Part shown: piece by piece, positions 16,113 through 47,984 of the stretch | Position numbering within the stretch: position 1 is the first letter of the stretch | Layout of the letters: each line of letters starts with the position of its first letter | Assembly (NCBI GenBank): GCA_020137815.1 | Contig: CM035360.1 | Location: 1,798,001 to 1,862,000, forward strand | Direction of reading: 5' to 3' | Length of the DNA stretch: 64,000 nucleotides | From: Hormiphora californensis | Lineage: Eukaryota > Animalia > Ctenophora | The notes under the pieces: generated by a model | The model's input: only the letters and a program-made list of their open reading frames with translations | Told to the model about the DNA's origin: nothing | Database searches by the model: none | Made by a program: the position numbers and the translations under genes

Positions 16113-16209
16113 GAATCAGGAAATACTGGTCCCTGATTGGCCGATAACCAGTCACGTGACCTAAATAGCGAGTTGTGATTGGTTGTTCACTTGTGTCGGT
16201 CGGTTCCTG
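16113..16209 (+). mobile_element. Left-truncated copy of the roughly 110-bp hAT-like MITE
   Basis: Matches about 36993-37089 and is flanked by a roughly 45-bp direct duplication (starting 16057 and 16210). Confidence 0.8.
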
Positions 16210-16484
16210 GTCATTATTCAGTAATCGCTTAGCATACGTCGTTAGTAAACGCTTCTATAGGATGCTAACCAGCGTCACATAGTCCTCGTGTCGTATGATT
16301 GTCATTTGTCATCCAGTGTGAAGAGTAAAAATAGAGAGAGAAAGAGAGAAAAAAACAGTTCATGAAAGAAGTGGGCAAGAAAATCATTTACCCCTTAGTC
16401 TACCTCCCCTTGCTTTAAAAAGATATTGTCTTGTTGATTCAGTCATGCTAATAGTTTAAATGTGATACAGCTATAACTGCAGTT

Positions 16485-18695: not shown

Positions 18696-27337
<8,642 letters not shown>

Positions 27338-27541: not shown

Positions 27542-28852
27542 CTACTGACTATTAATTCCTTCATTAGTTGAATAATAAAACTGTTCAACCTCAACTAACA
27601 GAGGGTGAGATTTACTAAGTGAGAGAGATAAACACTTGAGAGACATATCAAACAATTGTAACGCCCTGTTATAATTATCCAGATACTCAGCTTTGTCAGC
27701 AAACTTTTGATTCAGCTGTAACTTCCCCAGTTTAGCTAGGAACAGTCCTGTGGAGGGGTAACTTTGTGCCCAATCCATCAACCCTACAGTTGCCTTGAGT
27801 CCCGTCCGAAGTGCCGCCTCCCACCGCTCCTCTATAATCAATGCATCTGTTTCCGCCATCAGATGAGCCATAATCTCAATATCTTGCTGAGCCCGGGTGG
27901 TTATGGCAGAGTTGAATGTGGCAATGTTTTTCAACATCACATCGTTTATTTTTGTCACACTTTTGAGCAGTGAGCTCTGGCAGGATGGACATTGCAGATC
28001 ATTGTTTGGGATGTCAATGGCAGGGTTTGAGTGTTCTTTACAAGACGGGCACTCTCTCAGCAGTTGAGTGTCCCGACCCTTTTTACGCTGATCAGTACAC
28101 AACCCGCACGTGCATTCAAAGTTGTACTGCGAGAAAAGTTGCTGATGTCGTGAGAGGAATGGTTTGGGTAGGGAGATGTAGGAGATTGTTATCTGTTCAC
28201 CTGCTGGGATCTCCCTAATCGCAGTCACGTACGCAGTCCGGCCTCTGAATGACAGGACACAGTTCGGATCACAGGAGTGATTTAGCTTAGTTAGTTCGGG
28301 AATTAGCGCTGAACCGATTTCATTAAACTGTGTATCTTCCAATGTGAACAAGTTCACTACCAGTTTGATATACAGTGAATAAACCTTCTCTGGTGCAGCT
28401 GTAGCACACATCTCCCTCACTCCTCTCAACAAAAAAGGGTAATACTGGCATATCTTTTCATTTTCCACGGATTCGTGTTTCATCATACCATCCACTTTGT
28501 AAGTGGACCTCATTTCTGAGGAGGAAACGAGGAGGGCACAAAATCTGATTAAAGGAGGCACAAAATGGGAAGCATTGATCGAACTGAGCAGATCACACTC
28601 TGCCTTGTGGACCTTCCAGTTGTCTCTCTGGCACCCTTCTGAGCAGTAACGAAGGTGTTTACACCGGGAACACCGTTTCAGCGAGGAACATGGCTGGAAA
28701 CAATGGTTACACAGTTCTCGGTGACTCTTCTCGTTCAGGCAGGTGATCATTTGTGAGGTTTTGAAGAGGTTTGTCCGGGGTTTCAGGGTGCTTTTCGCGA
28801 AGAGGCCACTCCCCGTTTTGTCATCGATGTATTTAGAGCAGAATAAAACCAT
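27542..28852 (-). CDS. SMYD-family (SET-MYND) lysine methyltransferase, intronless
   Basis: Split SET (GSGLFA...LNHSCDPNC...EQITISY), MYND (CNHC..CSRC..YCSEGCQRDNWKVHKAEC), post-SET FECTCGLC and a helical C-terminal domain; first ATG at 28852. Confidence 0.93.
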   Translation of the reverse strand: MVLFCSKYIDDKTGSGLFAKSTLKPRTNLFKTSQMITCLNEKSHRELCNHCFQPCSSLKRCSRCKHLRYCSEGCQRDNWKVHKAECDLLSSINASHFVPPLIRFCALLVSSSEMRSTYKVDGMMKHESVENEKICQYYPFLLRGVREMCATAAPEKVYSLYIKLVVNLFTLEDTQFNEIGSALIPELTKLNHSCDPNCVLSFRGRTAYVTAIREIPAGEQITISYISLPKPFLSRHQQLFSQYNFECTCGLCTDQRKKGRDTQLLRECPSCKEHSNPAIDIPNNDLQCPSCQSSLLKSVTKINDVMLKNIATFNSAITTRAQQDIEIMAHLMAETDALIIEERWEAALRTGLKATVGLMDWAQSYPSTGLFLAKLGKLQLNQKFADKAEYLDNYNRALQLFDMSLKCLSLSLSKSHPLLVEVEQFYYSTNEGINSQ

Positions 28853-29115
28853 GTCTAGTGAAAAATAATTGGTCAATAATCACTGCACTATCAAAAAGGG
28901 AAGATTGGCAAATGGCGAGAGCTCTTCCGCAAAAAAAAACGAAGCCGTGGTCCACGGCTGCGTGGATCTGAAAAACAAAACTGGAAAACAGATTTAAGAT
29001 CGACCCAAATTTCCTGAGCTGAGGAAATGGGAATTGTGTGTGTGAAAGCCGGGGTTGCCGGTCCAATTAAAACGGAATAAAAATCAAGGTAATCAGTACA
29101 TATAAGATTAATAAA

Positions 29116-30591: not shown

Positions 30592-33500
30592 TTACTCCGA
30601 ACTTGCAGCAAAAGGCCGGAACTTATGAGAAACAAACCGGCCGTCTCTGTAAAGTAGAAGATCGTCAGCGTCACGAGAAAGGAACGCCATTACTTTTCTT
30701 GTCAATTCACCCGGTTTTGTCCCAGGCAGCTGAAAGAAAGATCGAATAACTTGAATCTGCTGTCAGGCAAAGTTAAACTGTTCAATTAACTTTTCATTGT
30801 TTTGTTCAAACCCCGGGGCGCGGGGAGGGAGGGTCGAACAAGGCAAACTTTTCACAGTTTCTGTTCGCTGACATCCCCCAATGAAATGAAATGTCAATAT
30901 CTGGTCAACCCAATCTAAGCGAACTATCGTCTATCTAATGGGGTCAGTACTGAGCGAACTATCTAATGGGGTCAGTACTGACAGACAATGAACATACGAT
31001 AAGTGAGAGGTAGAGCGTGGACCGTTCCATCCTGCTATTAAATCTCCCTCTCCGAACGAAACGGGCAAAGAATCCTGCGTAGTCGTCCCTGTTCCACTCA
31101 TCCCACATATCAGGTAGGGACATTCTTGTACACCAGTAGGTTACCTGGGGGGTGAAGTAGAGTTGGGGATAGTGGAGAGTTGTGGATTAGATAGTGGGGA
31201 ATTACGGGGTACATATATCAAACTGTAAACTTTAACCACAAACTAACAACTGACTAACAACTGACTAGTAAAAAATAAAATCTAAAATAAAAACTAAAAG
31301 AAAATATTCAAACAGTGATTAGACATACTACCTGGGCCTGAGCGAAGATTCCAACTTTAGGCTCTTCTGGAGCGGGGCTAAACATTCCTCCTCCTGCTTT
31401 TTCTCCCCTGCCATTGTCGGTCACAAGAAGTATTCTCCTATCATACTCCCTCTCTCCATCACTTGAGAACACCACTGCCAGCGAGTCATCTGCATCAACG
31501 TAGGCACCCGCCATACGAGGAGCAACTAATGGGATATAAAACATGGTGAGATGAACCAATTCGGGGATGGAGATGAGGGGAGGGAGCTGTCTAGTGTCTG
31601 GCGACACCAGATCCCGTTTTGATTCTCAAAACCACAAAACGGGTCGGTGCCGCTAAACACTAGATTATAGACAAGCAAAGCAAAGACAGGGAGGGAAGGA
31701 GGGAGAAAGATAATATCAGAGAATGAGATCATTACCTATTGTGTCACCATGATGTACCCCGGATGGATCCTCCATTCTCCCCTGAATATGATCAGCAACA
31801 GCATCCAGTGAGAAGAACAGGGCCTCTTCGTACAGAGCGGGTAGGCTGTGTCCATTACTTTCAAACCGGCGAGTTCGTAGGAAGCGGAGAATCACCTCAA
31901 AATAATCTGGATCTCCTGAAGAAGGGTAAAGAGTGTGTGTTACACAACCAAGTGAAGGGAAATCAAATCCTCCACAAACAAAGGGAAACAATTTTTTGCA
32001 TTTTTTACTGTCGATGAAGATGGCCCCATTTTGGTCGAGTGTGGGGGAGAAAACCCTACTTCCCTCTCCCAACAATCCAGTAAAGAAGTTTTCACAACCG
32101 TCGAACCTGAGTGTAGCTGGTGTCGTCTCAAATAATCGCTGAAATGGGATAATAAGGGTAAAGAATTGCGTGTCTCAGTCTAGAGGTTTGGTGGATCCCT
32201 ATTCGCGATCGAGGGGGCGGGGGCGGGATACTGTTTGTTGTAGATTAGTGTTATCTGGCCGGTTATATTTTCTATCGAGTTCTTTATCCAATATCCATGT
32301 AGATATGATAGCAACTCCCAAATTTAGTCTGCTTTCTACACGAGCCAATACAGTGTACAGTCCCGTAGCTACGCCCTCTCTATCTGCCCCCCCCCCCCTT
32401 CTCTCTCTCTATCCACCTCTCTCTCTCTCTCTCTCTCTCAGTCCTATGTGAGCACAGCAGACAAGATCCCCAACAGATTTTTTACAGTGTGTGTTTGTCT
32501 TGCATGATACTCATGGTGTAGACACCCATATTTTAGTTTCCAAAACCTGTATAATTTACCGAATTCCATGATTAACAAGCCTTGTGTAGACCTATAATTA
32601 GCTTTTCCTAGTGGGGTTACACTGTGTATATACTCCAAGGGCCCCATTTCACTATATCTTGTTGTAGACTACACTTGTGTGTTTCATGGCCTGTTACCGA
32701 TAGAACCACACTTCATATATGGGGGTAAGTAAAGTTATAGGGTTCTTAGAGCGTTCAAAGAAGGGACTCTCGCTTCCACCGGGGATGAATCCCAGTCTGC
32801 TCCTGGAATTATGCTGAGTCTTGTTTCGTTCAAACCTTTTTCGGGGCGCAGTGAAACAGGATCGAGCAAGGAAAGCTGAGTCCTGGAATCTAGATTGTCT
32901 ACCTTCCTTCCCTCTCTCTCTCCTTACATCCCTCCACTTCACAGGGTTTGTTGTCAAAGATTTGCCCGTGTATATTTGCGGAAGGGGTTGGTATAATTGG
33001 ACGGCCCATCCGCCTTGCCAAGGAGACCTACGCTGTCCCGGGGCAGTCCGTTGAGATTGTGGCCCAGTGCAAGTATGACGTCACAGAGGACCAGGTTGAG
33101 TGGAGCAGGGTGGTCATCGCTAAGGGCAAGGAGAAGGAGGAGAAGATATCGGGGAAGGACGTCAAGAAGAAACTGGGTGAGTTGTAGTTTCGAATTTGTT
33201 GCATGAGACCAGTTTCTCTCGGGCTAATATATCGGGATCGAGATTGTTTAATTTATTGGCTCCTGCTACAAGCTGAAAAAAATACTTGCCTTGTTCGACC
33301 CTCCCTCCCCGCGCCCCGGGTTTGAACAAAACAAAAAAATACGTTGCTATGGCTACTCTAACAGAAATTATCCCCCCTAACAGGTAAGGTAACTATAGAG
33401 GAGGGCAACAAAATCACCCTAACACTGTCCAAATTTGGTAAAAACGACGGTGGAAAGTACACAATATCCATCACAAAGGAGGAGGGAGCAGACCCTGATA

Positions 33501-34974
33501 CAGCTGAGACAGAGGTTATTGCAGAGGATCCCAAACGAGACAAGAAGATCCGGGGAATGTTTAATGAGATTGACAAGGACAAATCGGGGGAGATCACAAA
33601 TGAGGAGTTGGGGGAGGCTCTAAAGAAGGCTAACCCTGGTATGGCGGATGAAGATATTGATATGATGATTAAGGAGAGTGATGAGAATGGGGATGGAAAG
33701 GTGGATTATCATGAGTTCAGTATGTTTATGAAGAAGGCTGGATTGTAGGGAGCACTCTTTGCGTTTTTGGAGCGATGCCAACTATTTTTGGAGCGATGCC
33801 AACTATCGATTCCTGCTGAGATTATCGACTTGAGGACTGAGGAGGAAGCGAGCTTTGTCAAAACCGGACCGGACTCTAATTGCGACTGGTTAACGAATCC
33901 ATAACACCGGACTTATTAGAGGGGGCAAGGGAAATTCAGTATCTGTGATTCTGTAGTTGTGAGAGGAACTGGTCTCTATATTATTTGTATTTTTATCTAA
34001 ATCCTCGCTTTTTCGTTTCTTATCCCTAAAAAAGAGCTGCCAGGCCTATCACAAAACCCCAATTTCTCTACTAATCACAGGTTAATTACCTCTCTTTAAT
34101 TGTATTTCAGGAGAAGTTAGGATCAAGAACAGTAAAAAGATCGGACTGAATATCGAGGCAGTGGAGTCAGAACACCTTGGAATGTACCGGGTTTATGTAC
34201 ACGGCAAAAACGCAACAAACTACGCTACAACAGAACTAAAATATGACTTCAACCATCTGACGGACTTTAAAAAACTGGATGAGGAGAATGAGAATCTGAT
34301 CACTAAGGAGATGATGATTCAGGCAATGTGTTGTACAGATACATATCTCACTGAGAAAGAGATCAGAAAGTTTGTTAAGAATGGAGATTTTATGAAGGCG
34401 GATAAGGTGAATATATCAGGAAATACTGGTCATTGATTGGCTGGTAACCAGTCACGTGACCTAAATAACGAGTTCTGATTGGTTGTTTACTTGTGTCGGT
34501 CGGTTCCTGGTGAATATATTTGCCTTGCTCGATCGACCCTGTCTCACCGAGTAAAGGAGGGTTAATCAACAATTGAATATATCAGGGAATTAGGGCCAAT
34601 ACTCAACAAAGAATAATATTCTGGAAGGGATGGCCACCTTTTTAGTCCCCCTCCCATTGCCCTAATAGTGAAGCAGATCTCATCTCCCAATTGTCTTGTT
34701 GACACTTTTCTTTTCCAGGTTAATTATGACGAGTATGTGAGATATATGAAGTATGCTAAGAGGCACGTAGTGAGGCCGCCAGGACGAGAATTACAGCTTG
34801 ATGAGGAGCCCAAGAAGGGTGGTGGGGATGAGGGTGGCGGGGAGGGAGAGGGGGATGGGAAGGACAAGAAGAAAGACAAAAAGAAAGATAAAAAGAAAGA
34901 AGGAGAGGGAGGGGAGGAATGAGTTTACTTACCCCTCCGACGTTCAATTTGATGATTTTATTCTCCTCATCCAT
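30592..34974 (-). CDS. KCTD-type BTB/POZ (T1) domain protein
   Basis: Exon 1 34933-34974 (MDEENKIIKLNVGG, donor GTAAGT) splices in phase to 32009-32138 (RLFETTPATL...GAIFID) and about 31736-31915 (RDPDYFEVILRFLRT...LYEEALFF). Further exons near 31331-31525, 31000-31144 and 30592-30760; the C-terminal exons are less certain. Confidence 0.85.
32719..33748 (+). CDS. Nested gene, isoform A: N-acylation motif + Ig-like domain + two canonical EF-hands
   Basis: Micro-exon ATG GGG|GTAAGT 32719-32724, exon 32945-33176 and exon 33384-33748. Gives MGGLLSKICPC; Ig strands VEW and TLTLSKFGKNDGGKYTISI; loops DKDKSGEITNEE and DENGDGKVDYHE. Confidence 0.8.
34111..34922 (+). CDS. Nested gene, alternative 3' module (isoform B): second half of the Ig domain + degenerate EF-hands + charged tail
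   Basis: Phase-1 acceptor at 34110, exons 34111-34406 and 34719-34922. GEVRIKNSKKIGLNIEAVESEHLGMYRV aligns with exon 33384; loops DEENENLITKEM and DFMKADKVNYDE. Confidence 0.7.
34415..34509 (+). mobile_element. hAT-like MITE copy next to a splice donor
   Basis: Homologous to 36981-37089, with gtgaatat duplicated at 34407 and 34510. Confidence 0.8.
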
Positions 34975-35649
34975 TATTTTGACATTTTCTAAAAAAGGAT
35001 GCATGGTAAATTGTTTGTCTGTGTCGTACTATAAATTTCCAGATACCCCTCACATGTGAAGGAAAGACCTAAAATCAAAAACATAGAAAACAAAAAACAA
35101 CAATTTAAGAGTAAAATAATTAAATAGATCTAACATAATTCATACAGTTAGAAATTCGAATATATATATTAGTCAGAGAGAGATCAATTTGTGATAATCA
35201 TAGTAATTCTGTTAGTTTGTTTCTACGCTTCTGGTTGCCTAGCTCGACCCTCTTTACAAATGTAAAGGAGGGTTCCCGGAGGGTTAGAACATAACAATGT
35301 TTCTGGCTAAAACTCATATTAGCTCTACTTCTAAGGGTCTGATATTGGAACATATATATGTAAAAACTCACTGCTGACATGTTATCAACTTAACGTGCCT
35401 CTTCATATTCGTAATATGAGTGTTTAGTATATATATCGAGTTTCTGAGTAACGGGGGCAAACTGCAGCTATATCATAATAGCGGGTCCTACTTTCCAATA
35501 CTTCGTCTCAGACGACACCCTCCTTCATCCCTTTCTATTTTCCTAAATATCCTGTATCTTTCAGTAATGCTTGCCCCCGGGGCAACCCAAAATCGGCACC
35601 ACTATTAGTTGTTCCTTTCTCCTCCTCCTCTCTTTATCTCACTATGTCG

Positions 35650-37409
35650 TCAGGACTCTTTACTCCCTGAGATAAGAAGTGTTTTTGTTATTATTGTAAC
35701 GTGAAAGCAACAGATGCCGTTCTAAAATAGATCCAGATCGCTCGCTCTCTCCAGTGTTATGTAAGTATCTCTCTCCTCTCTGCGACGGTCCTGTGTCATG
35801 GACCGGGCTCTGTGTGCGCGCGCTCTAGTTTGCGCGCGGGTCACTTCATTTCTAACAGAAGGGAGTCACCGCGTGTTCCATACCTGGGTTATTGGAGGGC
35901 CGGCCTCCCCCGCCGGAACCCGGAGCTGCAGATAGGGTTCCACCCTGTGGCCCACCCTTATTGTCACCACTCTCATTGGCTACCATTTGGGAGATATTCA
36001 TTCGCTGGAAAAGGAGAGGAAGGGTTAGTTGGGGGTGCTAGGATATAAACAATGGAATTCGTCTTTGTTAATCAAAACAACAACTGCTTGACCCATCTAA
36101 AATAAGAAGACCTATCTAAAATAAAAACATCTTATTAATTCTCACCGGTCTCTTGGTAGATCCAGCGGGCGTGTGTCTATAGTTGTTGTTATCCTTCCTT
36201 CCTCCGGCATCCTCATCTTCAGAGTCACTAAACTCCTCGTCGCATGCTATCCTGTTATCCCTGTCTCTGACTGAAACACGGAGGAGGGGATGGTTAGAAT
36301 TGAAACGATAAAATCAGGGATACGAATTAAAAGCAGTTCAAAATGTTAATTGAGTAAAATATAACCCTTACTCGAAATACGGGTGTCCTTGTCCCTCTTA
36401 TCCTCATCTTCCTCAGCCTCAGGTATGGCATCAGTAGGAATATCCTGCATTTGTACACTGGGGGGTCCACCAACATACTTCAAGTTCTCAAACACTTTAG
36501 CCCTGGGATGTTAAAGCAGTTATTATGCTGTTTTAGACCAACTTGAAACCTAATAAATTACAATAATAAGTAAGAAATTATCACCAAATTTGAGGTGTAT
36601 GCGTTAGAAAATGGCCCATTTCTCTCTCCCACTTTGCTCACTATCAACCAATTTCTCTCTTCCTATTCTGCTCACTCATTTCTTTCCTATTCTGCTCACT
36701 CCCAACTCATTTCTTTCCTATTCTGCTCACTCCCTACTAATTTATTTCCTATTCTGCTCACTCCCTACTAATTTATTTCCTATTCTGCTCACTCCCTACT
36801 AATTTATTTCCTATTCTGCTAACTCCAAACTCTCTCCTACTCACTTCATCTTGTCCATGTATTCAGGTGTATTCTGGTTGGTCATGTTTCCAGGCTGGAT
36901 ATTCAGCTTGAAATCAGGTCCAAAGTATTCGAAGTAATCGTTGTATGGCAGATCTGGGGAGAGAAGTTGGACGTGTTAGCCAGGAACCGACCGAATCAGG
37001 AAATACTGGTCCCTGATTGGCTGATAACTAGTCACGTGACCTGAATAACGAGTTCTGATTGGTTGTTTACTTGTGTCGGTCGGTTCCTGGTGTCAGCAGT
37101 CACGACATAGCGGCCGGAGATTGTATGTTTTAAAATCATGTTTGTCTTCTAGAATTTCAAAATATGTCCATTTATGACAACACCGTTTTTGCCAAAACTG
37201 GGACTTGTCACACTTCTAGTTTGTCCTGGTATAACTCTCCCCACACTTACCATTGCTGATATCAATGCCCAGGGCATAAGCAGTCTCTAGTGTCCAGCAC
37301 CGTGCCACATTTCTAATGGTGTATCCACCACCCCCGAGAAGCAGAAGAGGCAGGTTGAACCTCTTCATATACTCAACACATTTAGCGTGACCTGTTCAGG
37401 GAGAGAGGG

Positions 37410-37485
<76 letters not shown>

Positions 37486-40400
37486 GAGAGAGAGGAGAGA
37501 GGAGAGAGATTCCCGCTCTAGCTGCGAGTCTCCTCGCTCGCTCACCGATAGAGACGATCTAGCTATATATAGATCTCGCCTCTAGTTCTCCTCGCTCGGC
37601 TCTCGCGCTCTCTCTCTCGGACAGAGAGAGAGAGAGAGAAGATAGTTGGGCTATCATAACCCTGACGTCATGACAGTCTAGACAAGGGAATTTAGATTAA
37701 AATGCAGTTGTAGCGGGTTGTAGCGCCCTTATAAACTTGAGACAATCTGACAGGCAAAACAGTTGTAACAAATCTTTAATTACAAATCATCAATAATCGC
37801 TAGTTAAAAACATCTTTGTAATTGATTATTTAATTGCTAATACAGTCGGACCCCGATTTAACGGCACCCTCGGGGGAAAGGGTTTTGTCCGTTAAATCGG
37901 GGTGTCCGCTAAATCGGGGTCAAATACTGTTAATTTCCTATATCGGGGGAAGATTATCCTGCCGTTAAATCGGGGTGCCGTTAAATCGGGGGTCGCTAAA
38001 TCGGGGTCCGACACACCCTACTAATTACCTTTGAGTGTAAGATTAAAACAACCTAGCCGATCCCCCGCCAGACTGTCAGCTCCACACTGGAGTACAATTG
38101 CCTCAGGTCGATATGCCTCCATGACCTTGCCCATTACAGGCTGGAAAATACTCTGGTAGCTCTCGTCATCCATTCCATCACGGAGCGGGAAATTTACTGG
38201 GGATGGAGTAGAGTTAGGGAGCGGGAAATTTACTGGGGAGGGAGTTATGGTGTTAAGGTGATAATACACCAGTTCATGTAGAGTTAGGGAGCGGGAAATT
38301 TACTGGGGGAAGATTGTAAAATTTAAGGTTCATTCGATTAGCTGTGGTCCGGCTGAATCATCATGTTATTCATATTTCCGAAAAAAGCTTTGGATGGATC
38401 AAACACTTTGCTGGGAACAAAACGGGCTTAAATGGAGTGTTGTTACTGTTATAGAGGTGGGCATCACACAACTGTACGTACCAGAGTGGTGTTTTCCGAC
38501 ATCAGCTCCAATATCCCGGATATCTCCCGTGCCAGGGAAGTATTCACCATACTTGTGGAAGCTCACCGTCATTACCCTGAGTGGTTGAGGTTTGATGAGG
38601 TTTGATGAGGTTTGGTGAGGTTTGGTGAGGTTTGAGGGTTAAACTTTCCAGCACCCCAGGTCAGTTACTGAACAGAAATCCAATCTCCAGACTACAAACT
38701 AGAGACAACCAATAGAAAGTAACCAACAACCAGAACATATAATTATGTATAGCTCTAGTTACCTGTCGGTTGTATAGAATGCTTCCTAGTTCCTACCCCA
38801 CTACCCAGACCCTACAAGATACCGCTAGTTACCTGTCGGTTGTATAGAATGCCTCCTCGACTCCATCCCCATGGTGAATATCAATATCGACATACAGTAC
38901 TCTCTTGTGGTACCTGATGGGGTGGTCAGGTGTATCAGAAAATACATGACACGCCACTCGTAGGTCTGTGACCGGAATATAGTAATGGTAATTTCTATCA
39001 AAACCCCTTCCTTTGTACTAGGACCAAACAAATCAAATTGATTACCACACACTTACTTGAGGAGCTCAAGGATGGAGAGGACAATGTCATTAACATAACA
39101 AAAGCCGCTAGCTTCAGATTTCTTGGCGTGATGTAAGCCACCAGCCCAATTGATGGCAATGTCCGTGTGCTGTTTGTTTAGTTTCATTGCTCCAGCTGGG
39201 GACAAGGGTGAGGGGTGATGAAAACTGGTGATTGAACCGCACAGTGGTAATGTATGTGGGGTAGACATTGGGTTCTTCCCGTTATTTTAATCATTACTAA
39301 CAGGCAACAGCTCGAGCTCAATAATTAGCGGTCTAATAGAACAGTATTGAGAGCTGCTGGAAGAACCAGCTCGACGGTTTTCATATGATATCTTACGGGG
39401 GGGTACCAACCTATTTTTTTGTATTTTTTTGTATTTTTTTGTACGGTCCGTACAAAAAAATAACCAAAATTCCCTGCTTTTTCCGTACAAAAAATACAAA
39501 AAAATACAAAAAAATACAAAAAAATATACTGCTGAAGGGAACTTCTTTAGGGCCCCCTATAAGTCTCTAGAGGTTTGCGGGGTCCTTATACTGGCCTGTA
39601 TAGCCCTCTAGTTTCGTAGTACTCATAATCCCATGCTTTTTCCATGCGAACATTACCATGATTAAGTTATTCTAGACCTGAACTTGCTCCAAATCCTAGT
39701 TGGGTAACAGCAAAATATGTCGGGATAGTGCCCAAGCTTTATTTTCTGATGAAATTTCATTTTTCGGCCGAATATGCCTACTTATTCCCCCTCATGCCTG
39801 GAAAAAGGAGGCATAAGCAGGCCGAAAAACTGAAAAAGCCGAATCCCCCGGCCAGTTGTGCGCGCGCTACATTATATACTCTCAAATCGCAGTCTATTCA
39901 GTTCCCCCATGCCATGGTGTAGTGGTTATTGCATATACTTGACACGCAGAAGGTCCCGGGTTCGAAATCGCTGGATCATTTTTTCAAATCTTGAATCACA
40001 CTGGTAAATAGACAAAGTGTAATCAATTTGTCAAAAAATCAGACGTTAAATACATTACACGCCACTTAGTTCTGTGACCTGGAATATTATGGTAATCTTA
40101 TCTAAAACCCTCCTGTGAACTACGGCCAAAAAGGTCAAATTTTGGCCATACTCGGCCTAAATATGAGCTCAAGATGGGAACAATGTCATTAAGTAACAAA
40201 GCCGCTAGCTTAGGATCTGGGACGGAGAGCACCAGCCAATGATGCAATTCCGTGGCTTGTTAAGTCATTGCTCAGCTGGGAAAGGGCAGAGAGAAGGATA
40301 AACTGGCTTAGAGACGCACTGTAGAAGGGCATGTGGGGTAGAATTGGTTCCCGCGCGTAAACTTATCTTATATTTTTTGTAATTTTCTGAGCTATTTTTT

Positions 40401-43762: not shown

Positions 43763-44191
43763 GACCTATAAGGAATAAGATTAATAATTAGTTTCCCGCA
43801 TAATAAGGTGCCTAATGTTATGTAGGAGTTCATGTGAAAGGGCCCTTCTTCTCAGCTAGCTTCTGGGTCTGATAAATTATATAATGCATTATAGGTGAAT
43901 ATATTATGCAATCTAATTTCTACTAGCTTCCGTTGCGTCTTTTCATGCTCGCTTCTTCACTCCTATCTAAAATTCTCTCTGACTTCTTATACTTTATCTA
44001 ATCTCGCTAGTCACACTGCTCTCTCGCTATCTCTCTTACTAAGTCATGGGTTATAAGTCATTAGTCACGTGCTGGGCTCATATATGTTTGCGAATTCCCT
44101 CATATATATTTCTTTTCAGTACCCCTATATTTCCTATAGGTCCTTAAATATTTGCTTAACCTTCACATTTTGTCTCGCCAGTACTTTTACC

Positions 44192-45652
44192 ATGAGTTCG
44201 ATTCGCTCTCTCCTGGGGATACACAACATTGTACCAGGCACCTACAATACAATCCACTGCTTCCCAGATCAATCAAATGATGTGGATACTCTCAAAGGAG
44301 TGGTTAGGGCGTGTCAGAAGGAAGGAATTGAACCTGTGGTAGGGCTTTTTCCTGGATCAGATATCGCTGAGAAAAACAAGGAGCTAGTGACATTCTGTAA
44401 CGGGTTTGCAGGGGTGCATGGTATTGGTAGTCTCTCTGCAGTTGATGGTAAACTGTCACTGACTGAGCTGAACAAGTATGCTGACTCAGATACTCTAAAG
44501 GCTTTTTCCCTGGATTGTAGTAACTATGGTGCTGAGATCAAAGATAATTTCAAGACTCTGTTTGGGGAGTGTGCTGGTCTAAAGAAACCTGTGGTTTTGT
44601 GTGCAGATAACAGTGTTCAGCTGACAGAGGCCTTGGTTACCATAGTAACCGATGGACTCCTTGATTTCTACCCAGATTTAGAAGTCATTGTTATGGACGC
44701 AACAGTTGTTCCTGCTCTGGTTTCTAGGCTGACTTCACCCGACCCAAGTGCCAGCCTACAGAAGCACGAACCGGAGGTATACTTTGGCAGGAACATGTTT
44801 TTCGTGTGGAACTTCTCAGATACCTTCTACACGGAGTATTTATTGAAAAAAGTGGGTTGTGATAACCTGCTCCTGGGGTATCCCGCTCCAACAGCCCAAC
44901 TATCCAACCTGGAACAACTCCACCAAGCCAAGGTGGTCTCCTGGAACGGGGCCCGGGTCCTGGGACTGGCAGAGGTTCCCCACTGGCCTCTGAATAGAAG
45001 CCGAATCACTGTTTTCTCCTCAGCTGCAGTGAACTCCCTCTCCTCCATCCTCCGAGACGCCCGAACCGGGTACACCGAGTTCATGGTACAGGGAGATCGG
45101 CTGATGCGGCTGCTTGCGGAGGAGGCTCTTGCTCGTTTACCGGGGGCAACCCCTGCCCTCTTGGAGAGTCCCACGGGTGTATATCAGGGAGTGGTAGATG
45201 ACACGCCCACTGAGAAACTGTGTGTTGTCTCCATTGTCAGGTCTGGTGATATCCTACTGGAGGCGTTCCGACAGCTCCGACCCGGACTAAAAGTCGGTAA
45301 AATCCTGATCCAACGAGACGAGAGCACCCCTGATAAAAGAGCTGTGTTCTACTACAAGAAACTGCCGGGTGACATAGCCAGCTGTCAGGTGATAGTCGTG
45401 GACCCAATGTTGGGTACTGGCGGGAGTCTGGACTGTGCGATGGAGGTGCTAACCAGTGCTGGAGTGGAGAACGTCATGTTTGTCAACCTCTACTCGTGCG
45501 AGGAGGGCCTATCCAGGATCCAACTAAAATACCCCACACTTCATACTGTCACCCTGCATATTGATCTGATGATGAATGAAAAGAAGTATCTAATTCCGGG
45601 GATTGGGGACTTTGGAGATCGGTACTATGGAACTCTCAACCCTCTCGAATAA
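44192..45652 (+). CDS. UPRT: Uracil phosphoribosyltransferase with an N-terminal degenerate amidohydrolase-like domain, copy 1
   Basis: C-terminal DRLMRLLAEEAL, VSIVRSG, GKILIQRDE, VDPMLGTGGS and YLIPGIGDFGDRYYG; about 265-aa N-terminal extension; intronless; first ATG at 44192. Confidence 0.88.
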   Translation: MSSIRSLLGIHNIVPGTYNTIHCFPDQSNDVDTLKGVVRACQKEGIEPVVGLFPGSDIAEKNKELVTFCNGFAGVHGIGSLSAVDGKLSLTELNKYADSDTLKAFSLDCSNYGAEIKDNFKTLFGECAGLKKPVVLCADNSVQLTEALVTIVTDGLLDFYPDLEVIVMDATVVPALVSRLTSPDPSASLQKHEPEVYFGRNMFFVWNFSDTFYTEYLLKKVGCDNLLLGYPAPTAQLSNLEQLHQAKVVSWNGARVLGLAEVPHWPLNRSRITVFSSAAVNSLSSILRDARTGYTEFMVQGDRLMRLLAEEALARLPGATPALLESPTGVYQGVVDDTPTEKLCVVSIVRSGDILLEAFRQLRPGLKVGKILIQRDESTPDKRAVFYYKKLPGDIASCQVIVVDPMLGTGGSLDCAMEVLTSAGVENVMFVNLYSCEEGLSRIQLKYPTLHTVTLHIDLMMNEKKYLIPGIGDFGDRYYGTLNPLE

Positions 45653-46008: not shown

Positions 46009-47481
46009 CTAATTGGTACCGTAATACCTGTCCCCAAAGTCTCCCACCCCAGGGACAATGTACTTGTGCTCGTTCATCATCAGGTCCATGTGTAATGTGA
46101 CAGTGTGGATGCCAGGATAACTATTCTGGATCCGTGCCAGACCCTCCTCGCAGGAGAACAGGTTCACAAACATGGTCTTGTTTGGGTCAACCCCTGAATC
46201 CGCCAAGACACCCAGTGCACAATCCAGGCTGCCACCAGTGGCTAACATTGGATCGACTACTATAACAGTGCATGAGGTTATATCTGCAGGGAGTTTCTTG
46301 TAGTACAGAACAGGTCGTTTATCAGGGGTGCTCTCGTCTCGTTGGATCAGGATTTTACCGACTTTTAGTCCGGGTCGGAGCTGTCGGAACGCCTCCAGTA
46401 GGATATCACCAGACCTGACAATGGAGACAACACACAGTTTCTCAGTGGGTGTGTCATCTACCACTCCCTGATATACACCCGTGGGACTCTCCAAGAGGGC
46501 AGGGGTTGCCCCCGGTAAACGAGCAAGAGCCTCCTCCGCAAGCAGCCTCATCAGCCGATCTCCCTGTACCATGAACTCGGTGTACCCGGTTCGGGCGTCT
46601 CGGAGGGTGGAGGAGAGGGAGTTCACTGCAGCTGAGGAGAAAACAGTGATTCGGCTTCTATCCAGAGGCCAGTGGGGAACCTCTGCCAGTCCAAGGACCC
46701 GGGCACCGTTCCAGGAGACCACCTTGGCTTGGTGGAGTTGTTCCAGGTGGGATAGTTGGGCTGTTGGGGCAGGGTACCCCAGGAGAAGGTTATCACAACC
46801 AACTTTGTTCAATAAATACTCCGTGTAGAAGGTATCTGAAAAGTTCCACACGAAAAACATGTTCCTGCCAAAGTATACCTCCGGTTCGTGCTTCTGTAGG
46901 CTGGCACTTGGGTCGGGTGAATTCAGCCTAGAAACCAGAGCAGGAACAACTGTTGCATCCATAACAATGACTTCTAAATCTGGGTAGAAATCAAGGAGTC
47001 CATCAGTTACTATGGTAACCAAGGCCTCTGTCAGCTGAACACTGTTATCTGCACATAAAACCACAGGTTTCTTTAGACCAGCACACTCCCCGAACAGCCT
47101 ATAAATTCGTTTATAATCCTCCTGTCGTTCAGCCACTGCGGCACAATGGATTGAAAATGCCTTTACCGGGCCTTCCGTGGAATACTTTTCAATTTCGCCC
47201 AACGCAGCCTCTAAATCCTCTGTACTAAGTCCGGCCACTCCATGAACCCTTCTCTCGAGATCGGAGCATGCTGATGTTAACACCTCGTTCCAGGTTGTGA
47301 GATCTTTGCCGGATGGAAAGAATCCTACCACCGGTTCAGCCGTGTCTTCACAGCTTGATAAAATGCTCGAGATAGCAGTCGGTACATCAGCATTGTGAAC
47401 TGGCGGCGGTGGAAGTCCTGTGAAACGAATGGCATTCTTAAAAACACCGGGCACAATATTCCGTATCCCAAGTAAAGACAT
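46009..47481 (-). CDS. UPRT: Uracil phosphoribosyltransferase with an N-terminal degenerate amidohydrolase-like domain, copy 2
   Basis: VDPMLATGGS and YIVPGVGDFGDRYYG; inverted paralogue of 44192-45652. Confidence 0.88.
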   Translation of the reverse strand: MSLLGIRNIVPGVFKNAIRFTGLPPPPVHNADVPTAISSILSSCEDTAEPVVGFFPSGKDLTTWNEVLTSACSDLERRVHGVAGLSTEDLEAALGEIEKYSTEGPVKAFSIHCAAVAERQEDYKRIYRLFGECAGLKKPVVLCADNSVQLTEALVTIVTDGLLDFYPDLEVIVMDATVVPALVSRLNSPDPSASLQKHEPEVYFGRNMFFVWNFSDTFYTEYLLNKVGCDNLLLGYPAPTAQLSHLEQLHQAKVVSWNGARVLGLAEVPHWPLDRSRITVFSSAAVNSLSSTLRDARTGYTEFMVQGDRLMRLLAEEALARLPGATPALLESPTGVYQGVVDDTPTEKLCVVSIVRSGDILLEAFRQLRPGLKVGKILIQRDESTPDKRPVLYYKKLPADITSCTVIVVDPMLATGGSLDCALGVLADSGVDPNKTMFVNLFSCEEGLARIQNSYPGIHTVTLHMDLMMNEHKYIVPGVGDFGDRYYGTN

Positions 47482-47984
47482 CCCTGGTGTGAAACCTAAA
47501 TTCAGTAATCAGTAATTTTAAATATCATCATTTTGATTTGAAAATAGAGATTTGAAAAATGTAAATGGCGAACAGCAGCACTCGGTAGCTAATTGAGCTC
47601 GAAAAAGTTCACAGTTTAGTTGTCTTCTCTATTATTGGAATTGGCAACGTGAAGCATAACGCATATTTGGCAGATGAAGCCCATAAATTGGTCCAGCTCG
47701 AATCATAGGCTATTTTCTGCAGAGCACACTGCTGGCCAGCGTCAAAATCTGGGTGAGTGCTGACACTTTAGGGTTAGGGCTAAATTAGGGTTAGGGTTGG
47801 GGTTTGGGTTGGGGTTAGGCCTTGACATTCCCTACCAGATAAACTTTGGATTAGCCAACGGTTGAGTGATTTGGCGGTTAGAGCCATTTTAGTGAATCAA
47901 CTTTTTTGGAAGAACGATCCACGGGCGTCGTTACGATCTGGATGCTAAACCACTCAACCGTTTTGGTTAATTCAAAGTTTATCT

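Follow-up and report, generated by a model that had tools for sequence, protein, structure and literature searches.

A ctenophore gene with a predicted acylated N-terminus and two paralogous 3′ modules that probably exchange half an immunoglobulin domain together with an EF-hand lobe

Introduction

Can one gene supply both a calcium-binding protein and a calcium-insensitive counterpart by exchanging half of an immunoglobulin (Ig) domain together with the EF-hand lobe behind it? The question is raised by a locus of the ctenophore Hormiphora californensis on the plus strand (32719..34922) of the 64,000-nucleotide (nt) stretch analyzed here (GenBank assembly GCA_020137815.1, contig CM035360.1, positions 1,798,001 to 1,862,000). 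This whole stretch is referred to below as the window, and all coordinates are those of the window. At this locus, a shared half encoding a Met-Gly N-terminus and the first Ig strands is followed by two modules, A and B, each of which would complete the Ig domain and add a pair of EF hands. An earlier reading, made from the sequence only, had proposed that A and B are alternative 3′ modules spliced to the shared half. Our analysis indicates that both modules are real and conserved and that they probably give a genuine pair of alternative isoforms.

Swimming, prey capture and muscle in ctenophores are controlled by calcium, and to our knowledge few calcium effectors of the ctenophores' own have been named. 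The gene would provide a small, expressible candidate for such an effector, with a natural calcium-blind control at the same locus.

A single shared half precedes two paralogous modules

When the exons (Table 1) are joined by their coordinates, the path through A is an open frame of 200 amino acids and the path through B an open frame of 245. The shared exon ends at 33176 in a phase-1 donor (GTGAGT), and the acceptors of A (before 33384) and B (before 34111), which lie 727 nt apart, are both phase 1 and match it. The coordinates, phases and shared-exon content given in the sequence-only reading all hold; it had omitted the phase-0 intron (34407-34718) that splits B behind a phase-0 donor after 34406. 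An hhalign comparison of the two modules (probability 96.5, E 9e-10) shows paralogy along 113 columns, in keeping with the paralogous acceptors of that reading. In a tree of 26 modules, from which short fragments (P0002, P0011, P0012, P0014, P0015 and P0030) and near-copies (P0020, P0031-34, P0036 and P0037) were omitted, the 13 A rows and 13 B rows form separate groups with support of 100/100, which implies that the duplication predates the species sampled.

The shared half itself is a single copy among the 2734 six-frame pieces of the window (profile E 4e-46; runner-up E 0.38). There is no second first half and no start exon for B in the 64 kilobases (kb), in line with the proposal that B has no visible start exon of its own. 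This bears on the possibility that B has its own first half and promoter, farther upstream or too diverged, with the A gene nested in its intron. Two B-containing proteins, P0005 and P0020, do carry long N-terminal extensions before B. These were rejected as a first half: they are spacer read in frame, the same letters being found in the spacers of two contigs described below (L002 and L003), and none of their frames is more similar to the shared half than shuffled sequences are. Given also that no second copy lies within 64 kb, we regard a separate first half as very improbable.

The module junction divides a predicted V-set-like domain

The homologue P0003 was modelled, for isoform A only, from an 11-row alignment (pLDDT 80.5, with residues 1-20 unreliable), and in this fold model eight strands precede the EF pair. 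Exon 2 encodes strands 29-32, 38-44, 53-61 and 64-71, and the exon junction lies between the fourth and fifth strand (C′ and D). Residues 21-127 of the model match antibody V domains (Foldseek E about 2e-7; Z 14.4-15.1, root-mean-square deviation 2.0-2.4, about 100 residues aligned), and the shared half plus A is modelled as a complete V-set-like sandwich with strands A′, B, C, C′, D, E, F and G. There is a precomputed Pfam V-set match on P0004, and module A matches Pfam I-set with an E of 0.0019, below its cut-off. The predicted fold thus places the junction where a half-Ig exchange had been proposed, and the analogy drawn with FGFR, in which a second Ig half is exchanged behind a constant first half, is borne out. 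From the homology of A and B, the shared half and the B half would likewise fold into one domain. A model of B by itself consists of three loose strands plus helices (pLDDT 53.7), and a fold search with this weak model gives no match at E 0.001 or better.

The B-to-F strand disulphide of secreted V domains is absent. Most rows have the strand B Cys, and there is no strand F Cys in A or in the window's B; an F-strand Tyr-x-Cys occurs only in the B of P0005, P0020 and P0021. Such a disulphide-free domain fits a cytosolic Ig. Gly2 and a Cys-Pro-Cys are kept in the window and in 9/9 full-length homologues, all of which start with Met-Gly. By the motif rules for myristoylation and palmitoylation (Gly2, a small residue at position 6, nearby Cys and no signal peptide), the protein is predicted to be myristoylated at Gly2 and palmitoylated at Cys, and hence lipid-anchored and cytosolic.

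A search with exon 2 gave four clusters among 50 candidates, at 68-82% identity to ctenophore proteins; the named members, from Mnemiopsis leidyi and Bolinopsis microptera, are both uncharacterised. One relative, P0018, differs from the otherwise identical P0017 by a 15-residue insertion directly before the Ig domain, which is probably a further cassette exon that alters the distance from anchor to Ig.

The EF-hand loops are canonical in A and degenerate in B

EF loops were scored on seven canonical criteria; a canonical loop has 12 residues, with ligands at positions 1, 3, 5, 9 and 12, and Gly6. Both loops of module A score 7/7 in 12/12 sequences. Module A also matches Pfam EF-hand_7 above its cut-off (E 1e-13), and at the sequence level residues 128-197 of P0003 resemble the lobes of calmodulin (E about 1e-19 to 1e-20). 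For module B, each of the 12 sequences reaches just 3-5 of the seven criteria in loop 1 and 4 in loop 2. Position 12 of loop 1 is Met in 10 of them, Asn in one and Glu in one, and loop 2 lacks the ligands at 3 and 5 as well as Gly6 in 12/12. EF-hand_7 matches 12 of 13 B rows, and P0023 reaches 25.1 bits against a cut-off of 30. The distinction between canonical and degenerate loops made in the sequence-only reading therefore extends to every sequence scored, and A is predicted to bind calcium and B not to.

Module B is conserved as a coding sequence from its acceptor onward

B homologues, among the best 7991 candidates scored, comprise 11 clusters with 19 members, 51-94% identical to P0023. 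Their alignment has 17 invariant and 29 nearly invariant columns, and conservation is highest in residues 68-99 (column agreement 0.91). This strong conservation despite the degenerate loops suggests a binding surface and not decay. Purifying selection on B is seen from the acceptor onward. Between the window's B and that of contig L001, 40 of the 67 residues before a conserved Met-Met are identical, 27 of these 40 with a synonymous change, and the differences by codon position are 20/19/48, with the third-position excess present also upstream of the first conserved Met. Between the A-B spacers (362 nt in the window, 170 nt in L001 and 289 nt in L003), the best local alignments are only 15-36 letters long.

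These results bear directly on the view that B is a degenerating copy of no use, a passive passenger in the 3′ untranslated region (UTR) of A. Its degenerate EF loops and the lack of any observed B junction would agree with decay. The third-position excess, the invariant columns, the in-frame spliced intron and a frame that is open in all 20 B-containing proteins do not; the conservation of B largely refutes this view, to which we give next to no credence.

The arrangement is also conserved. The Mnemiopsis gene model P0006 and contig L003 both have the shared half, A and B in this order, and contigs L001 and L002 have A followed by B; a phase-1 acceptor precedes B in the window and in all three contigs. 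A profile of B compared with 1.84 billion representatives gave 137 matches at E 0.001 and one at 1e-30 (P0022). Among the matches examined, only P0022, P0093 and P0167 span half-Ig and EF over the whole profile, and nine others that were fetched are EF-only or Ig-only by eye. P0093 and P0167 are genomic open reading frames (ORFs) that represent A modules, and they place the A acceptor at the same position in other species. The ESM Atlas held no usable match for P0001 and only generic EF-hand clusters for P0023.

RNA contigs confirm the A junction and transcription of B

Five RNA runs (X1-X5) were used, all as contigs, which show neither transcript ends nor single molecules; four were covered by small shares, and X5 is from a related species less than 90% alike. 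The predicted junction 33176>33384 is seen in one contig of X4 (GT..AG, joint 33175/6>33383/4, 35 letters on the short side), and an X5 contig is spliced through exon 1, exon 2 and A, with ATGGG directly before 32944. The sequence-only reading had named an untranscribed B as grounds for abandoning the proposal, and B is in fact transcribed: one X1 contig covers 34210-34408 with 0 differences. Beyond 34408, the next 10 letters of this contig are those with which the second B exon begins, an overhang that indicates splicing within B and is the sole RNA support for B exon 2 in the organism's kind. Contig depths (A pieces 48-60 and B pieces 3-5 in X5; A 10.7 and B 7.8 in X1) cannot rank the parts of the gene and were not used as evidence.

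The spacer 33749-34110 is partly covered by contigs of X1-X4, in X1 up to 33972 without an end, adapter letters following there. A scan of a metagenome collection yielded the three loci L001-L003 from 138 pattern matches. L003 holds the full A frame free of introns and continues through the spacer into B, and we infer that it is spliced RNA because an intron cuts short P0019, a genomic ORF from its cluster. On the simplest reading, the 3′ UTR of the A mRNA appears to contain B. If the A mRNA runs through B, the choice is one of acceptor and not of poly(A) site. Both of the proposed 3′ modules are real, but they do not appear to be two terminal exons, each with an end of its own. We also note that, with such read-through, the B-intron splice would lie about 660 nt behind the A stop and could expose the mRNA to nonsense-mediated decay.

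Module B is probably spliced to the same donor as module A

Taken together, we think it quite likely that this is one gene with two isoforms, in which A is spliced to the shared donor or B is spliced to that donor instead. The B isoform is deduced from a conserved, start-less second half-Ig with a matching phase and no other visible source of a first half. It is probably a minor or cell-type-restricted form. Of the two-isoform proposal, the A splice and the transcription of B now have RNA support. None of the three refuting results named in the sequence-only reading was obtained; the first was not cleared either, in that the junction 33176>34111 appears in no contig or protein.

Several observations weigh against this interpretation. 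Its main weakness is that, among 173 proteins, 10 contain the shared half and A, 19 contain B without the shared half and one gene model contains all three, so that the shared half is joined straight to B in 0 of the 20 B-containing proteins. The only Bolinopsis RefSeq protein found (P0010) is the shared half plus A, and no RefSeq B form occurs among the best 7991 candidates scored. None of the five runs has a joint to 34111, although no contig covers 34044-34175. In 3/3 B-bearing contigs the order is A, stop, spacer, B, with spacer and not the shared exon ahead of B. In the L002/L003 lineage (L002:365-440, L003:970-1045), B begins about 24 codons earlier, and the junction of this exon is not the same as in the window. 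Finally, the small residue at position 6 of the acylation motif is Ser in the window and Ala in all 9 relatives. Assemblers keep the commoner path, and a minor B junction could be lost in this way.

As a separate observation on the longer exon, the first 13 residues of the L002/L003 B resemble the 13 residues after the intron at which the genomic ORFs P0007, P0008 and P0019 break off. The duplication in that lineage may therefore include one more small exon.

The structure of the three B-bearing contigs would also suit a second cistron, in which B is reached by spliced-leader (SL) trans-splicing at its acceptor or by an internal start. B would then be made as a separate half-Ig/EF protein, able in trans to pair with the A protein or to compete for it. 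A and B proteins occur on same-sized contigs in four more cases, which is a hint only. According to the available part of PMC7986045, ctenophores use SL trans-splicing, and operons were unreported in them as of 2021. The sequence of B speaks against such a start. The window's B lacks an in-frame Met until residue 25, where relatives have Leu, His or Tyr, and B has no conserved start codon where its conserved region begins. Conservation of the 24 residues ahead of this Met is on a par with that of the remaining half-Ig (mean column agreement 0.72 vs 0.71), and the B acceptor retains the phase of the shared donor. In addition, a half sandwich models poorly. We consider a second cistron quite improbable.

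Another possibility is raised by P0006, the Mnemiopsis model that contains all three parts, in which A is joined to B from inside its second EF loop. A donor within A would then produce a fusion of Ig, EF, half-Ig and degenerate EF. The window's A exon does contain five further phase-1 GT sites, but none at the P0006 position, and the fusion product would break EF loop 2 and leave a half domain unpaired. Moreover, where the Met-Gly start belongs, P0006 carries about 490 unrelated residues, and it looks like a prediction error. We regard the fusion as extremely improbable.

The splice at the shared donor may itself take more than one step. Module A starts with a donor-like GTAAG directly after its acceptor (AG|GTAAG at 33384), and in the window AG|GTRAG is confined to 2 of 815 acceptor-like sites. 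The available text of PMC8605326 defines ratchet points by such a juxtaposition of acceptor and donor. It is conceivable, though rather unlikely, that all transcripts splice first to A, regenerating a donor, and that some cell types (for instance those with comb-plate or balancer cilia, as against muscle) re-splice to B in A's 3′ UTR. The sequence in L003 at this position is the weaker GTAAAG, and the GTAAG may merely reflect conserved Gly-Lys-Val codons. If true, recursive splicing would serve, on short introns, to select one of two coding modules, and this in the sister group of other animals. On this reading, ctenophores would possess a lipid-anchored Ig/EF-hand adaptor of their own for signalling, whose gene can switch its calcium response on or off.

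A proposed mechanism and its relation to known systems

In the proposed mechanism, the shared donor would pick the near acceptor (A) or the far one (B), and both mRNAs would end at one poly(A) site behind B. The predicted acylated N-terminus would tether the protein to the inner face of the membrane, where the disulphide-free V-set-like Ig would dock a partner. In isoform A, the calmodulin-like lobe would open on calcium and relay the signal. Isoform B, with its changed D-E-F-G strands, conserved calcium-blind lobe and charged tail, would be a constitutive binder or a competitor.

Acylated calcium sensors include the neuronal calcium sensor/calaxin proteins and calcineurin B. They share the predicted N-acylation with the ctenophore protein, which differs in having two EF hands only and an Ig domain in place of the N-lobe; the EF pair of A matches calmodulin lobes and in this resembles the C-lobe of calmodulin. 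GNAO1 is also N-terminally acylated. Its alternative last two exons are a C-terminal substitution derived from tandem exon duplication, with 77 such swaps in human (available text of PMC8373072). The likeness lies in shared 5′ exons, a duplicated 3′ block and two homologous C-termini from one gene. However, that text ascribes GNAO1-type swaps to alternative poly(A) use, whereas here the mRNA of the upstream module seems to run through the downstream one, and the proteins are unrelated.

FGFR2 IIIb/IIIc similarly exchange the second half of one Ig domain (available parts of PMC3192734 and PMC8373072). As described there, FGFR2 is a transmembrane receptor with an extracellular Ig and internal, mutually exclusive exons; the ctenophore Ig is predicted to be cytosolic, and its swap takes the EF lobe and tail along. 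In alpha-actinin-1, splice choice between exons 19a and 19b decides between a calcium-binding and a calcium-insensitive EF-hand region (available text of PMC4435478). There, one internal exon and one loop are concerned and the effect was shown by calorimetry, while here a whole lobe is concerned and the effect is predicted. Unlike alpha-actinin-1, the ctenophore gene has no actinin rod or actin-binding domain.

Two public records represent the same gene with the shared half plus A, namely Bolinopsis XP_063690734.1 (uncharacterized LOC134823265) and Mnemiopsis KAL5249473.1 (hypothetical), the latter holding B as well in the same order. Neither has the Met-Gly start, a B isoform or a named function. 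No description of the gene family or of the B isoform was found in the literature searched, which took in few subscription papers, and this agrees with the sequence-only reading, to which the architecture was not known as a named family. The available parts of a comb-plate preprint (10.1101/2022.03.27.486007) and of PMC11797021 make no mention of the gene, which a table of comb-plate proteins could list. The splicing logic is already known, and the protein family and the B isoform appear undescribed. What sets the gene apart from the known systems is the combination of an acylation motif, a V-set-like Ig and one EF lobe, found here only in ctenophores, and the proposed exchange of half-domain and lobe in one step, with apparent read-through. 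This would be an old, conserved splice choice between duplicated modules in ctenophores, missed or garbled in the two public gene models found. Should the B junction fail, a conserved, start-less B frame in a 3′ UTR would be a puzzle in itself.

Layout of the locus and neighboring genes

The features of the gene are listed in Table 1. For isoform B, the spacer would by inference be the last part of an intron.

Table 1. Features of the Ig/EF-hand gene in window coordinates
Feature	Position	Strand	Content
Coding exon 1 (Met-Gly)	32719..32724	+	ATG at 32719; phase-0 donor after 32724
Shared exon 2	32945..33176	+	Remainder of the acylation-type N-terminus (Ser6, Lys7, Cys9, Cys11), then the first four Ig strands (A′, B, C, C′); ends in a phase-1 donor
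Module A	33384..33748	+	Ig strands D-G and two canonical EF hands; stop 33746-33748
Spacer between A and B	33749..34110	+	3′ UTR of isoform A, ending in a pyrimidine tract and an acceptor
Module B exon 1	34111..34406	+	Paralogous Ig strands D-G, degenerate EF loop 1, most of loop 2
Intron within B	34407..34718	+	Phase 0; holds a copy of a high-copy repeat, about 34415-34515
Module B exon 2	34719..34922	+	End of EF loop 2, exit helix, conserved RPxGRxL, Gly/Glu/Lys/Asp tail; stop 34920-34922

The B intron is missing from the genomic ORFs P0022 and P0031-33 and is possibly a lineage-specific gain. Its repeat of about 110 nt has further copies at 16115-16217 and 36995-37092 and is very abundant in three RNA runs. 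The intron upstream of module A holds a second short repeat (33284-33335), which is matched by contigs of other loci, and similar letters are found near 34520 and 35240.

The neighbors are ordinary eukaryotic genes. The next gene downstream (35204-39290, minus strand) is presumably HDAC1-like, judging by its motifs; it converges on the Ig/EF-hand gene, and RNA contigs reveal three of its introns. Also by motifs, we take the many-exon gene at 20000-27010 (minus strand) to be an SMC3-like cohesin gene and the intronless frame at 27542-28879 (minus strand) to be an SMYD-like SET/MYND frame. Finally, two convergent, intron-free and nearly duplicate frames of about 500 amino acids lie at 44057-45652 (plus strand) and 46009-47508 (minus strand). 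Their C-terminal part, which follows an N-terminal domain, is presumably a uracil phosphoribosyltransferase, as its motif suggests, and they are intronless in an intron-rich genome.

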